From the NCBI GenBank assembly GCA_963838505.1, contig CAWIRG010000013.1:55679-119678 (forward strand): DNA of 64,000 nt, read 5' to 3'. The notes under the pieces were generated by a model that did not search any database, had not been told where the DNA came from, and saw only the letters and a list, made by a program, of their open reading frames with translations. Numbering within the stretch: position 1 is the first letter of the stretch; each line of letters opens with the position of its first letter. Below, one piece after another: positions 2,593 to 37,110 of the stretch. Made by a program: the position numbers and the translations under genes. The stretch comes from Candidatus Bathyarchaeota archaeon (lineage in GTDB: Archaea > Thermoproteota > Bathyarchaeia > Bathyarchaeales > Bathycorpusculaceae).

Positions 2593-2734
2593 AAACAACG
2601 TAACCCTATATCTAGCGCGCTGGTTTATCCCTAAATCAGCGAGTGCACGCGCTGTTTGCCTTCATACTAAATGAAGTGACAAAGAAACAACAAACATCAG
2701 CGCCCGCAGCGGCGTAGCAGGCTGTTGGACCAAG

Positions 2735-2919
2735 CCATTCTATCTTTGCGCCACGCGCAACCACATGTAATGCCTGGGTTTGTTACAATTCACATTACTT
2801 TTGACGTTACAAACAAAAAGGCTGAGTCCACTCTGAACAGTAGCCCAGACTGTTTTTGTTCATGGTTTGTTACAACCCACATTACTTCTGACGTTACAAG
2901 TAAAAAAGGGGGGGTCGAC
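2735..2919 (+). repeat. composite intergenic repeat element, copy A (two 37-nt repeats 2778-2814 and 2865-2901, 50-nt spacer, G7 run + GTCGAC)
   Basis: Read directly. R1 is GTTTGTTACAATTCACATTACTTTTGACGTTACAAAC; R2 is GTTTGTTACAACCCACATTACTTCTGACGTTACAAGT. The whole ~185 bp recurs reverse-complemented at 31078-31259. Confidence 0.9.
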
Positions 2920-2990
2920 TTTCAAGAGCAGGTAGGGCGGGCGTGAAATCTCTGCCGAGGAAATTCAGAGTTTCCCGCGGCATGAAAAAT

Positions 2991-3329: not shown

Positions 3330-3600
3330 TCACATGTCTCCCCTCGGCGATAACACGCCTTAACTTGTACGCCCAACCACCATTATAGAGTTTTCCATGT
3401 TTCAAGATACTCACAGAACATTGCTGCGCGCTCTGAGACGAAACTCTCTATTTTTTTCTCGCGTTCGTCTCACGCCGATTTTCCCCACTTTTTCGTGCGC
3501 TACGTCGCAAGAAATTACGTGACTCGTGGAACCATAACTATTCCAGTCACTTCACGATATTCACATTACATTTAGAAAATAGGTTGCGCACGCATAGAAA

Positions 3601-3900: not shown

Positions 3901-4189
3901 AGTTCTACCCTTCACGCATTTGCCTTCAACAGTTGGAACAAGGAGTATAAACCGTTTATGAATTAGAAACCATGGTTCAAACCCACATATTGCCACGCCA
4001 ACACAAGTCTCCGTCGCATCTTTGCAACACATTTCTGTTCATATCGAACCCCTAGACAACCTGAACTTGGGATAGTTATTACAAATATGTATTCCAAAAC
4101 CGTATCTTAACAGCACATGCCAGTAAATGCCCACGACACAGAAACTCTTCTCAGGAATAAGCAACAGACGAACAGTACTACCCGCTCAG

Positions 4190-4350
4190 CGCGCTCTCTC
4201 TCCATGGTTTGTTACCACACAACATTACCACGGTTGTTACCAACAAGCAGGCGGGACGACTCCAAAGAAGGAGATTTCACTTGATTTCTCCATGGTTTGT
4301 TACAGCACAACATTACCACGGTTGTTACCAGCCAAAGATAGGGGGTCGAC
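4190..4350 (+). repeat. composite intergenic repeat element, copy B (two 38-nt repeats 4207-4244 and 4295-4332, 50-nt spacer, G5 run + GTCGAC)
   Basis: Read directly. R1 is GTTTGTTACCACACAACATTACCACGGTTGTTACCAAC; R2 is GTTTGTTACAGCACAACATTACCACGGTTGTTACCAGC. Same architecture as copies A and C but a different sequence. Confidence 0.85.
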
Positions 4351-4443
4351 TCTGAAAAGTAACATGTCTATCCTGAACCAAGCGCTTCAACGCACGTTTA
4401 TAAGCTGGGCAGAAGCTCACATTATTGTCTAGGGTAAGAGTCG

Positions 4444-5109: not shown

Positions 5110-5342
5110 TCCGGATCCCCAATAAAGATTTCACGTCGACCACCATCATACGCCACATTTGAAAGAAACATAGGTCAATCACTGACGGGTGATCACAACG
5201 CACAAAGCAGCAAAGGTTCCCTCAGCCCATAAGCGCGCTTGCCTTGTTTTCATCATAACACTATCAAGAACCCCACGGGTATGGATGATTGAAAAGTTTT
5301 TATCGGCTACAAAACGATAGTTGTTGCAAAGGCAATCTAACG

Positions 5343-5696: not shown

Positions 5697-6009
5697 AAAT
5701 TATCTAAATGAACCTGCAGCTTGCAGCCACAAACGCGCGAAAACCTGTTTGTAAAAAGAAAACGCGCGCGAAGGCCGTTCAGATTAAGAAGCAGACGCAC
5801 GCATGCGCTGAAGGTCTTGAACCCCTTGCCTATCAGTCACAAGTTCACCAAGCTTTTTCTCAAGCTGAATGCGGCGTATCTTAGAGTTTCAAGCAGTTGG
5901 AAAAAAATGTTGCCGCGACAAAACGCAACACAAATTCTCTCGTTTGTCGTCTTTTCCCTCCCGAAACGCACTTATCTGTTTGCGTCGCTCATACAAGCAA
6001 GGCAGAATC

Positions 6010-10118: not shown

Positions 10119-11186
10119 TCAGTTCTTTCTGTTCGCCTTGACGATTTTGTAGCCTGAAGCTTTTCGCAACCTATTCATTACCGCAAGTCCAAGTCCCCTG
10201 AGAGGCACGCCTTCAGCGAGCATTACATCAACTTCTTCCAAGTCAAGCTCTCTAATGTTAGCGAACAGATTATGCGCCACAGTGACCAGATTGCGTCTGC
10301 TTCCGAGAGATTTCACGACGTCGGCCTTATAAGAACCCACAGTTTCATCTGTGCACAGAATCCCAACCTTGCTTCCTCGTCTCTCATAGTAAGCTATCAA
10401 TTCATTCATTCTGCGGACCACGGCAGATGATTGGCCTTCAACAACGACCACCTGAGCATTTGGGGCATAATGCTTATGCTTCATTCCTGGTGAGCGGACG
10501 CTCCCAATGAGCACTGGCTTCTCAGCCGTCACAGCCGGATCGAGTTCTACTGAACCGAGAACCTGTTTTAGAGATTCAAACGTTGTTCCGCCGGGACGCA
10601 GAATCCGAGGTGGGTCGACCGTGACGTCAAGAACAGTGGATTCGACACCTATTATCGTTGAACCAGCATCCAAAACAACGTCAATTCTTCCATCTAAATC
10701 GTCCATAACATGCTTCGCTGTTGTTGGGCTTGGCTTGCCCGCGAGGTTGGCGCTTGGCGCCGAAACTGGACATTGGCTTTCGCTGATCAAGGCGAGAGCG
10801 ACTTTGTGCCGAGGCATCCTCACCGCAATTGTGTCCAAACCCGCGACGGTCACGCGGGGCACTAGCCTTGAACGTTTCAAAACTAAAGTTAAGGGTCCAG
10901 GCCAAAATGTTTTCATCAGCCTTTCAGCTTGTGGAGGAACCTCTTTGGCCAGTTCGTAAACATCCTTTACGTCGCAAACGTGCACGATGGGCGGGTTGTC
11001 CAAAGGACGTTTCTTTGCCTCAAAAAGTCTGCGGACAGCTTCTGCATTTAAGGCGTCAGCACCTAAGCCGTACACTGTTTCTGTGGGAAAAGCGACCATG
11101 CCGCCTGCCTTGATGAACCTTGCAGCGACACGTATTTTCTCGACCTGAGGATTCTTCGGATGCACCTTTAACAGTATTGTCTTCAT
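10119..11186 (-). CDS. sua5: threonylcarbamoyl-AMP synthase (Sua5/YrdC with C-terminal Sua5 domain)
   Basis: FPTETVYGLGADA and SAPSANLAGKPSPT YrdC-fold motifs, plus a ~130-aa C-terminal Sua5 domain. Confidence 0.9.
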   Translation of the reverse strand: MKTILLKVHPKNPQVEKIRVAARFIKAGGMVAFPTETVYGLGADALNAEAVRRLFEAKKRPLDNPPIVHVCDVKDVYELAKEVPPQAERLMKTFWPGPLTLVLKRSRLVPRVTVAGLDTIAVRMPRHKVALALISESQCPVSAPSANLAGKPSPTTAKHVMDDLDGRIDVVLDAGSTIIGVESTVLDVTVDPPRILRPGGTTFESLKQVLGSVELDPAVTAEKPVLIGSVRSPGMKHKHYAPNAQVVVVEGQSSAVVRRMNELIAYYERRGSKVGILCTDETVGSYKADVVKSLGSRRNLVTVAHNLFANIRELDLEEVDVMLAEGVPLRGLGLAVMNRLRKASGYKIVKANRKN

Positions 11187-30671: not shown

Positions 30672-31077
30672 AGGAAGCTGTCACGTCCTGCCTCTGTTAA
30701 TCTTGACGCTCCGTTCTAAACCTTTCCATAACATATCTCGAAGTGGCAACTCCGTTGTAACGTCTTGGAGGCTCAGAACGTAGCGCCCATGCGTGTTCCT
30801 AAAATGGTCAAAAATGGCTATGATTCCGTTTTGCACATTTCTGCCAGTGCTCAAGACAGTTACTCGAAGAAATCAAGAACAGATACGAAACGCAAAACCT
30901 TCCTTGAATCAGGGAAGACGAATAAAAACCATTTTAGGCCAATTTCGGAATAGGCATGTGCACCGCTAATTCAAGTATGCTGAAACCCCTTTTGCATAAT
31001 AGCCCAGCAAAGTAGACCCGCCTTTTTTATTTTACATTTTTTGTAATGTTGAATTGTAAGATTTGATGTTGCGTTGG

Positions 31078-31259
31078 CGACCCCCCTTTTTCACTTGTAA
31101 CGTCAGAAGTAATGTGGGTTGTAACAAACCATGAACAAAAACAGTCCGGGCTACTGTTCAGAGTGGACTCAGCCTTTTTGTTTGTAACGTCAAAAGTAAT
31201 GTGAATTGTAACAAACCCAAGAATTACATGTGGTTGCCCGTGGCACAAAGACAGAATGG
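31078..31259 (-). repeat. composite intergenic repeat element, copy C (reverse complement of copy A; repeats at 31180-31216 and 31093-31129)
   Basis: The reverse complement matches 2735-2919. Both 37-nt repeats are identical to those of copy A, and I count about 8 differences, all outside the repeats. Confidence 0.9.
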
Positions 31260-31720
31260 TCAGGTCGGGCAGGCCTACCTTGGAGTTACCGTCTACGTTG
31301 CGCGCTAGCCTGTTTCTAGATTTCTTTTCTTGGGTCGAGTAGGGTTGAGTTGCGGATGTTTCTTCAAAAGGTTGTGTCATGAAGAAAGAAGGATAATTCT
31401 TTGCAAACGAATTTAGGGTCAGGCATGCGCGCGTTGTGGCGTGCCATGGATCTGCGGAGCGCATATGACTCTCTTTTATGCGCCCGTAGTGCCTACAAAT
31501 ATCTTTTATGGGTATCGGGGTTCTGTATGGTTGTCGGTTGATGTGAATCATTGCAAACTGTCGATTGCGTATGCGGCAAGGCTTAGGTACATAAGTGTCA
31601 CTTTGGAGATGAATTATCCTGATAAGCGTTGGAGACGGTGGTGCAGTAGTTCGAGGCTACTGAAGCCATATGTCGTCGAGCCAGCTACAGATTGAATGGG
31701 GGGGTTGGAGACCTGTGCTA

Positions 31721-32283: not shown

Positions 32284-32820
32284 CTAGAGAAGCTTCTCTT
32301 TCAAAACAGACAGGATGTCCTCGGGTTTTGCAATTGACACGCCTGTCAGATCACCGACGATTTCTATCAGGATTATTTTGTCCGGTTTGGTCAAATTGAC
32401 TGGTCTCTTGACGTTTGCTGCGACTTTTTCAATTATGTCTTTGGTGTGTGTCGTGGTGAATCGTTTCTCGACTGTGATGCGGAATGTTTCGTTCCCGCCG
32501 ATTTTGGGGCTGAGTTCTGCAACTGTCTGTTGGATTAGGTCTAGGTTTGTTTGGACAACTTTTTCAATTGGAATTATCCTGAGTATGAAACGGAACTCGT
32601 ATGGACTTTGAACTAGTATAGTCCGCAACTGCCTGACGGCTATGAATGGGTCCATGCTGGTCTTTGCCGCGATTAGGCCAGAAATGCTCGTTCTTTCGAT
32701 TTCAGGTGAAGTTTCGCCCATCTTTTCAAAGAGGAAACGTAGTTCGGAGCGGGCGTACTTTTCGTTTCCGCGCGAAGTTGTGACTAGAAGATTGAATTCT
32801 TTAAGCACATGCTTCACCAC
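32284..32820 (-). CDS. THUMP-domain RNA-binding protein
   Basis: FNLLVTTSRGNEKYARSEL at the N-terminus and FRITVEKRFTT...IILIEIVGDLTGVSI are typical of stand-alone archaeal THUMP proteins. Confidence 0.8.
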   Translation of the reverse strand: MVKHVLKEFNLLVTTSRGNEKYARSELRFLFEKMGETSPEIERTSISGLIAAKTSMDPFIAVRQLRTILVQSPYEFRFILRIIPIEKVVQTNLDLIQQTVAELSPKIGGNETFRITVEKRFTTTHTKDIIEKVAANVKRPVNLTKPDKIILIEIVGDLTGVSIAKPEDILSVLKEKLL

Positions 32821-36576: not shown

Positions 36577-37110
36577 CCTTCAAACTTCGTTGTCTTCCCG
36601 TTGCAACAGGTTAAAACCTCGCAACCAAGTATTTGTTTAGTCCCATCCGGCTTCTTCAGAAGGAACCGCTAGAATGCATAACGCGTGCTATTATGCCTTG
36701 AAGGACAAGGTTCCGGTTCACTGTCGTGGCCAAGAGAGCTTTTGGCGCGCTAGGCTGTTGCTAAATCGAATCGTTCGTGTCAATTTCCAAGTAGCGTTTG
36801 GGCATGATGGCGTTTTCTTGGCACTCTTACGTGCTAGGTCATGGTGTTTGTCCAAGCCTTAGAATGGCAGAGCAAGTTTATGTGAATCCCGCGAATTTAG
36901 CAACACGCTGGCGCGCATGTTAATCGGCATGGATTGGCAGGCGACGAACGTTGTACAAGAGATCTGAATGGAGACCAGTACGCGGTGTGCACTGCAGCGC
37001 AGTGCGGGTTCAAACCTTCTGGCAATAGCATAACACTCGTCATCAGCCGACAGTCTAATTGGGGGAGAATATTAAAGAATGGGCAGAGCATATCATAAAG
37101 GCAATTTGAC

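Follow-up and report, generated by a model that had tools for sequence, protein, structure and literature searches.

The 64,000-nucleotide stretch of the Candidatus Bathyarchaeota archaeon contig CAWIRG010000013.1 analysed in this study (hereafter the window) carries two nearly identical, mutually inverted copies of an intergenic element, wA at 2728-2913 and wB at 31081-31266 (hereafter the twins). They are two B-type copies from a lineage-specific family in Bathyarchaeia, whose members are non-coding tandem arrays interspersed in the genome. The array is self-contained, non-coding and unstructured; it is under long-term constraint over its full length, and it is independent of the identity and orientation of the neighbouring genes. 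We found no account of such arrays in the searchable literature or in Rfam 15. The family was undescribed before; its kind, the interspersed intergenic repeat, is known, and its architecture and conservation are unusual. As to function, we tentatively favour the reading that the array is a multi-site docking platform for a putative sequence-specific protein.

Arrays of the window and architecture of the unit

A repeat search of the window found inverted arms of 186 nt at 2728-2913 (+) and 31081-31266 (-), which are 95% complementary. The near-identical inverted twin claimed by the original prediction is real, and the arms lie within a few bases of the positions given for it (2735-2919 and 31078-31259). 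The tally of about 8 differences was reproduced by pairwise alignment: the left flank has 5 substitutions, the 50-nt spacer 1, and the tail 2 differences, namely 1 substitution and the length of the G-run (7 G in wA and 6 G in wB). In the same alignment both 37-nt repeats (2778-2814 and 2865-2901) were free of differences, again as stated before. Under uniform change, the absence of all 8 differences from 74 of the 186 nt has a probability of p = 0.016, a nominal value calculated post hoc. The two internal repeats of one copy differ from each other (88% over 43 nt). Leftward of the 186-nt core, weaker homology with a 16-nt indel continues for about 30 nt, to about 2700 and 31300. By sequence both copies are B-type (GGCTGAGTCCACTCTGAACAGT; AAGTGAAAAAGGGG; left flank CCACGGGCAAC). 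The G-run after unit 2 (2908-2914; 31081-31086), which varies from 4 to 10 G among orthologues, is a slippage-prone homopolymer within an otherwise conserved element.

A sensitive profile scan of the window gave six strong units and one degenerate unit (31002-31061), and nothing more. The arrays are three in number and spread over 29 kb. The third array, wC, and the degenerate unit of wB are additional to what had been listed in the earlier description. The wC array is C-type, lies between the divergent genes of an HTH_45 regulator and a molybdopterin oxidoreductase, and has the tail GGGGGTCGAC(T)CTGAA, as in the twins. Its C-type orthologues were found at two of the collected loci, L001, which is a metagenome-assembled genome (MAG), and L067. 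The degenerate unit of wB is an insertion relative to L001 and L067 and corresponds to the diverged unit 3 that follows unit 2 at many loci. The features of the three arrays are as follows.

2621..2982 (no strand): lineage-specific block holding wA, between GCGCGC-type motifs at the CDGSH and thioredoxin 3' ends
2728..2913 (+): array copy wA, B-type, consisting of left flank, unit 1, unit 2 and G-run; unit profile E = 1e-18 and 1e-21
2778..2814 (+): wA unit 1 core R1, GTTTGTTAC-N5-ACATTAC-N7-GTTAC-AAAC, with three TTAC boxes; direct repeat, TTAC columns invariant in 53 modules
2815..2864 (+): wA inter-core segment, with A-run, GGCTGAGTCC, CTCTGAAC (2831-2838), T-run (2853-2857) and TTCAT
2865..2901 (+): wA unit 2 core R2, from repeat search and alignment
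2902..2919 (+): wA unit 2 tail, A6, G7 and TCGAC, from alignment
4199..4359 (+): array wC, C-type, cores 4207-4242 and 4295-4330, 88-nt period, tail GGGGGTCGACTCTGAA; unit E = 1e-18 and 6e-19
30958..31305 (-): B block, non-coding, with GCGCGC motif, left flank of about 75 nt, units 1 to 3 and right flank of about 60 nt
31002..31061 (-): degenerate unit 3 of wB (CTTACAATTCAACATTACAAAAAATGTAAA...); nhmmer E = 0.009
31081..31266 (-): array copy wB, B-type, cores 31180-31216 (unit 1) and 31093-31129 (unit 2)

Aligned with one another, the six window units share the pattern (CAT)GGTTTGTTAC-N5/6-ACATTAC-N7-GTTAC, followed by an A-run, a G-rich run and GTCnACTCTGAA, and the similarity extends past the 37-mer. 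CTCTGAA is followed by a T-run. Each 37-nt core holds TTAC three times, about 12 nt apart, and the units of an array are all co-oriented. For the whole family, the module alignment comprised 53 dereplicated members, and the frame and end tests were carried out on 66 modules. The alignment has 27 invariant and 46 nearly invariant columns, and CTCTGAA and the T-run hardly vary. The majority base has a mean frequency of 0.84 in R1, 0.79 in the spacer and 0.89 in R2; in the outer flanks this goes down to 0.45 (left) and 0.67. Family-wide, 22 of the 50 inter-core columns are conserved at 0.9 or more. The constraint that had been proposed for the repeats is thus real when they are compared with the left flank, but it is not specific to the repeats, since the spacer is nearly as well kept. 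R1 and R2 are slightly more similar to each other in the same module (0.81) than in different modules (0.78). In one clade, the base preceding TTAC turned from G or A to C in several boxes, and in both units together.

The open reading frame (ORF) that spans the element had been regarded as an artefact, and this view was borne out: none of the 26 modules with a period of 85 or 86 nt is open on the element's strand, and Pfam gave no match for the ORFs. Of all 66 modules, 24 have an open frame on the element's strand and 21 on the opposite strand; periods of 85, 86, 88 and 89 nt are all common in this test. A 9-codon ORF, MVCYNPHYF, was noticed in unit 2 at 2862-2891 (+); it is not conserved, because its ATG is often ATC or ATT in other members and its stop codon is missing in C-type units. 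A protein-coding function was ruled out by the closed frames and the absent Pfam match.

The element had also been described as structured, which the folding analysis contradicts. The 191-nt element folds no better than its shuffles (z = +0.10 and -0.10 on the two strands), and the mean single-sequence z is slightly positive (+0.26 on the plus and +0.79 on the minus strand). For the 53 modules, RNAalifold paired no bases on the element's strand and predicted one hairpin of 5 bp (-2.7 kcal/mol) on the opposite, minus strand. In this hairpin, CUGGA-N7-UUCAG, 95.8% of cells are paired on the minus strand and 80.4% on the plus strand, with one double change only. The excess is explained by variable positions that are compatible with G·U pairing on the minus strand alone, and the hairpin is a hint about the strand, not about structure. 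At gathering thresholds, Rfam had no match in the 64 kb. A permissive Rfam scan gave two chance-level C/D snoRNA matches (E 0.44 and 2.7; 20 and 19 bits, against gathering thresholds of 44 and 55). A C/D-box or H/ACA small RNA was rejected, as the C box is absent and these matches are at chance level, and so was a tRNA-derived element, for which ARAGORN found nothing.

Distribution and history of the array family

A pattern made from the columns common to all window units was run against 185,579 GTDB species representatives. It matched a single one, a Bathyarchaeia MAG from SPRUCE peat, which holds three arrays within 8 kb, each of two units with a period of 87 or 88 nt. A slightly relaxed pattern matched at least 120 stretches in JGI and ENA metagenomes from peat, bog forest soil and lake or river sediment, and several of these matches share single long contigs of 0.3-2.5 Mb. 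Among the matches listed, the unit profile found 225 units at 116 loci, which form 140 arrays (65 one-unit, 68 two-unit, 4 three-unit and 3 four-unit arrays by the profile). Unit spacing is narrow: of the 97 spacings below 300 nt, 74 fall at 85-89 nt, most often at 86 (29) or 87 nt (27). Many of the 'two-unit' arrays extend both ways, with a degenerate unit 0 upstream and a diverged unit 3 (TTTTACAATTCAACATTACAAAAAAYGTAAA) downstream. Unit 3 is itself conserved, and sometimes a remnant unit 4 comes after it. The array is made up of two well-kept units, accompanied in many loci by 1 to 3 degenerate ones, which makes 2 to 5 units in all, and is about 190 nt long, up to 400 nt. In the array-rich regions of long loci there is roughly one array per 20-50 kb. 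A genome would therefore probably hold dozens of arrays, a figure that is an extrapolation and not a count.

The arrays are strictly intergenic. They are present in 11.5% of the gaps between tandem genes, 15.4% of those between convergent genes and 11.8% of those between divergent genes, and show a mild bias towards the direction of flanking co-directional genes (31 with the same direction against 17). Within 2.5 kb of arrays lie 150 genes, to which 155 Pfam families were assigned. The commonest of these families, with 3 or 4 members each, are RsmB, arginase, PolB (family-B DNA polymerase), peptidase M29, adenosine kinase and S6e, and they are orthologues at syntenic loci. The window's own neighbour genes are archaeal housekeeping genes: CDGSH/Fer4_19, thioredoxin, HTH_45, molybdopterin oxidoreductase, arginase, KEOPS Cgi121, family-B DNA polymerase and RsmB-type methyltransferase. 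At two loci, L041 and L086, tRNA 3' ends (…GGTTCAAATCC…CCA) were seen about 50-90 nt upstream of the arrays.

Array types are older than the species that carry them. The B arrays of the window and of L001 have 84% identity, whereas B and C of the window have 66%; C-type arrays are likewise 84% identical between genomes. The flanking proteins across those genomes are 74-85% identical, and the adjacent PolB-RsmB intergenic DNA shows no alignment beyond about 60 nt. The types A, B and C thus predate speciation and are conserved over their full length, unlike the surrounding intergenic DNA. In a three-way alignment, a B block of about 350 nt (30958-31305) is common to the window, L001 and L067. 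L001 and L067 carry PolB, B, RsmB, arginase, A and C in this order. The window instead has an array-free PolB-RsmB gap of 172 nt, and its B block is found upstream of arginase. We considered the right flank of wB as a relic of the PolB start; this idea was dropped, as the three-way alignment puts the flank inside the conserved non-coding block. The left flank of the B block (31235-31300 (-); L001 6080-6150) translates to a dockerin-like 'NVDGNSKVGLPDLTILSLCHGQ'. Its DNA is conserved in the three genomes, with neither a Pfam match nor an intact gene upstream, and the stretch is perhaps what is left of a coding sequence, or else coincidental.

For the site of wA, CDGSH neighbourhoods were taken from six related contigs, L123-L128, whose CDGSH proteins are 84-91% identical or in the same 90% cluster. 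CDGSH and thioredoxin are still convergent neighbours in four of the six. The gap between them holds a SnoaL-like gene in L123 and L124 and is only 52 nt long in L125 and L126. The remaining two contigs, L127 and L128, lose homology to the window within about 30 nt of the CDGSH stop codon, with unrelated DNA beyond. The unit profile had no hit in any of the six loci. Since arrays are missing from these relatives, the window's 398-nt CDGSH-thioredoxin gap (2593-2990) is lineage-specific, and wA is a lineage-specific insertion or replacement with B-type sequence in this 3' gap. Synteny is kept on both sides, the site is not an inversion junction, and comparison with L123-L128 made no target duplication visible. 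Exact-protein look-ups for arginase, thioredoxin and P0001 gave no match.

The original prediction had explained the distribution of differences between the twins by constraint rather than a recent neutral duplication. This contrast does not hold, as wA is a lineage-specific duplicate. Constraint and recent duplication are a false choice; both apply. Since the 95% identity is confined to the 186-nt core and the edges are more diverged, with an indel, we infer that a B-type array would have been duplicated and that gene conversion would then have acted between the inverted copies. The comparison shows that arrays can be gained or lost at intergenic sites without change to the flanking genes. 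A gene-specific cis-regulator is unlikely, because the same gene pairs exist in relatives without arrays. As a separate observation, the stretch 3' of the CDGSH gene is hypervariable when close relatives are compared, being a SnoaL gene, 52 nt, unrelated DNA or an array.

Between the twins, which are inverted and 28 kb apart, lie PolB, RsmB, arginase and some 25 further genes. The pair could bring about inversion of the 2913-31081 segment; the gene order around the twins departs from that in L001 and L067. A 28-kb composite transposon bounded by the twins was rejected, as the order of PolB, RsmB and arginase in the interval is conserved and synteny with relatives holds on both sides of wA.

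GCGCGC or CGCGCG palindromes accompany many arrays. A motif lies within 250 nt on at least one side of 61% of arrays, against 23% of control windows. Over all fetched loci their density is 0.18 per kb in coding DNA and 0.93-1.5 per kb in intergenic DNA, and it is highest between convergent genes; 26 of 93 lie within 50 nt 3' of a stop codon. In L123, L124, L127 and L128, a homology breakpoint is found at or near GCGCGC, about 25 nt past the CDGSH stop. The motif probably serves this lineage as a signal at the 3' ends of genes, and it may also be a boundary for recombination. Its positions in the window are the following.

214-221, 2615-2620, 3426-3431, 4189-4194, 5233-5238, 5734-5770: GCGCGC/CGCGCG
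31300-31305, 31427-31433, 32769-32774, 36745-36750, 36911-36916: GCGCGC/CGCGCG, continued

Possible functions of the arrays

In the docking reading, which we favour with less than even confidence, several copies of one sequence-specific protein would bind the phased TTAC boxes, most simply on DNA, and the array would act as a self-contained docking platform. Recognition by the protein would keep the sequence conserved and may underlie the occasional copying to new intergenic sites. This reading is supported by the invariant short boxes at fixed spacing and by the strict unit period. It is also supported by the concerted change of the base before TTAC in one clade, together with the slightly higher similarity of R1 and R2 within a module. 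When the element was considered as an iteron array, phased direct repeats of a short box were present (three TTAC per core, with cores at 85-89 nt).

It is worth stating what weighs against a docking platform. Both the protein and its binding are putative. The whole 87-nt unit is conserved, including the T-run and CTCTGAA; this exceeds typical binding sites and would fit an RNA body equally well or better. The box spacing of 12 nt differs from the helical repeat. The co-orientation of the units and the hairpin tolerated on the minus strand (95.8% against 80.4%) hint at transcription. Mobility may be incidental ectopic recombination, because a single clearly recent duplication was seen. A few of the metagenome hits are chance matches in unrelated genomes (L020, L022, L023, L046 and L080).

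There is one main alternative, which we hold to be possible although we lean against it. The array may be a series of head-to-tail small unstructured RNA genes, or a precursor cut into units of about 86 nt. The minus strand would probably be read, with units ending in the small hairpin and a U-run, and the products would be base-pairing or protein-bound guides. The fixed period, the co-oriented units and the conservation over the whole unit, inter-core segment included, are consistent with this interpretation, and so is the autonomy of the arrays, which are gained and lost independently of neighbour genes. The near-invariant T-run before the core and the A-run after it give both strands a stretch of oligo-T, which in archaea is the signal for intrinsic termination. 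The 5-bp CUGGA/UUCAG hairpin also favours the minus strand. Beyond that hairpin, however, there is no consensus structure, and one double change is all that the alignment offers. No recognisable promoter was found, and motif derivation from the upstream regions gave a weak Shine-Dalgarno-like signal. A hypervariable segment of the guide type is absent, and the paralogues differ only modestly, in short inter-box stretches. An Rfam match is lacking as well.

The array could also be a non-autonomous mobile or selfish repeat, similar to REP/BIME or BOX, that is copied in trans by a recombinase encoded elsewhere and conserved solely for recognition by that enzyme. We consider this unlikely. It would account for a repeat that is multi-copy, strictly intergenic and somewhat commoner between convergent genes, for the lineage-specific new copy at 2728-2913, for the movement of the B block relative to PolB, RsmB and arginase, and for the bracketing by GCGCGC, which is above control (61% against 23% on at least one side). 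Compared with REP/BIME in particular, the arrays are multi-copy, intergenic and modular; however, they have no palindromic structure, and no Y1-transposase is among the recurrent neighbour families, although a distant trans-acting gene is possible. The original prediction had reported neither transposase nor cas gene nor terminal inverted repeats (TIRs), and the family analysis agrees: the recurrent families in the 150 flanking genes include no transposase, integrase or cas gene, and a TIR signal is absent. In the 66 modules the longest inverted match of the ends averages 2.1 nt, against 2.7 nt in shuffled controls, and the longest direct match of the flanks averages 5.2 nt against 4.8 nt, which gives no signal of target-site duplications (TSDs). 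The miniature inverted-repeat transposable element (MITE) was rejected because neither TIRs nor TSDs exceed these controls. A search of 2.9 million viral contigs gave one chance hit only, and a viral origin was rejected since this was the sole hit; the repeat is missing from viral contigs in this sense. One recent copy was observed. Paralogues of one genome are old, at 66-84% identity, whereas each type is preserved at 84% from one species to another, and this combination indicates long-term selection without bursts of copying.

A more speculative proposal, which we regard as quite improbable, joins the arrays and the bracketing GCGCGC motifs into a cas-independent, lineage-specific system. 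Either the dispersed mini-arrays would be transcribed and cut into unstructured units that resemble the guide RNAs of clustered regularly interspaced short palindromic repeats (CRISPR) and load an effector, or they would be mobile non-coding cassettes exchanged by a site-specific recombinase. The replacement of a SnoaL gene by an array between two GCGCGC motifs, in the manner of a cassette, would point to exchange at such boundaries.

A degenerate mini-CRISPR of the CreA/CreR type, whose repeat-spacer-repeat RNA would direct a Cas effector to a promoter of the host, had been among the original proposals and is now very unlikely. The layout does recall it: two direct 37-nt repeats lie about 50 nt apart with a GTTTG start and a CAAAC end, the last repeat is 3'-degenerate, further units decay outward, and R1 and R2 co-vary slightly. 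However, the top 25 Pfam families of the 150 flanking genes contain no cas family, and the scanned window genes adjoining modules are not cas genes. No canonical array using this repeat was found in 0.93 Mb of family loci. The 'spacers' are conserved, similar among paralogues and homologous between array types, and their longest matches elsewhere in the window are 11-12 nt, a chance frequency. Dozens of dispersed copies are also unlike the cas-guarding module (PMC8501985, PMC9458426). The CreA-type proposal is not supported: the true family loci in the fetched DNA have neither cas adjacency, nor a canonical array with the family's repeat, nor a spacer target above chance. Genuine CRISPR arrays were seen on two AT-rich contigs, at L023 93-1348 (with a solo repeat at 11181) and at L046 771-3872; they have at least 20 and 27 repeats of GTTACAACTCCTATAAAGGAACAATACACAC at a spacing of about 66 nt, and this repeat is unrelated to the family. 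L023 and L046 were rejected as family loci, as the pattern was matched by chance inside coding sequence on unrelated contigs.

Replication-origin repeats, that is, clusters like origin recognition boxes (ORBs) or iterons bound by Orc1/Cdc6 or a plasmid Rep protein, are the least probable candidate: the succession of core, A-run, G-string and T loosely recalls an ORB with its G-string, and one array lies beside PolB in two genomes, but known ORBs flank an AT-rich unwinding region beside the initiator gene orc1/cdc6 (PMC4010727), whereas here the repeats are direct, the inter-core DNA is not AT-rich, several arrays occur within tens of kb, the cdc6/orc1 family is not recurrent among flanking genes, and the PolB-adjacent array is dispensable in the window.

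Significance and comparison with known systems

In peat and sediments, Bathyarchaeia rank among the most abundant archaea, and their enrichment culture is recent. To our knowledge, essentially no non-coding biology has been described for them. Conservation above that of the surrounding intergenic DNA, together with the probable dozens of copies, points to an unrecognised sequence-specific factor, for which a DNA-organising protein, an RNA-processing system or a recombinase is a candidate. In practical terms, annotation will mistake the arrays for two-repeat CRISPRs or hypothetical proteins. The arrays also show where genomes have been rearranged, as with the 28-kb inverted pair, and they are a lineage-specific marker for binning and strain tracking.

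Several known systems resemble the arrays in part. CreA/CreR modules have the same repeat-spacer-repeat layout, with degenerate repeats and a non-adaptive, conserved 'spacer'. They lie in or beside cas operons, resemble the resident repeat, and have a spacer that matches a nearby promoter (PMC8501985, PMC9458426, bioRxiv 10.1101/2023.03.10.532045). The arrays share none of the cas context, the likeness to a resident repeat (at the fetched loci) or the promoter match, and their copy number is far higher. Iteron and operator arrays, such as sopC-type centromere repeats and archaeal ORB clusters (PMC4010727), likewise consist of phased direct repeats of a short recognition box with a fixed period, to which multiple copies of a single protein would plausibly bind. 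Those are single loci with an adjacent initiator or partition gene, whereas the present arrays are dispersed without a linked protein gene, and their inter-repeat DNA is conserved as well. MITEs (PMC10969869) are also small, non-coding, multi-copy and intergenic. Unlike them, the arrays have no TIRs or TSDs, possess an internal tandem structure, and comprise old paralogues without recent bursts.

The closest kind is that of the bacterial interspersed intergenic repeats REP/BIME, BOX and ERIC/RU (PMC2759123 for RU/ERIC). Both these repeats and the arrays are intergenic, are built as modules of short sub-elements and give rise to occasional new copies. They are likewise present in tens of copies per genome and tolerated in convergent 3' gaps, and their function is largely obscure or protein-docking. 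A RAYT-like gene, in contrast to REP/BIME, was not seen near the arrays. The bacterial repeats are imperfect palindromes or have inverted ends, with stable folds, whereas the arrays consist of direct tandem units without conserved pairing. The arrays differ further in being archaeal and in having types that are kept as orthologues between species.

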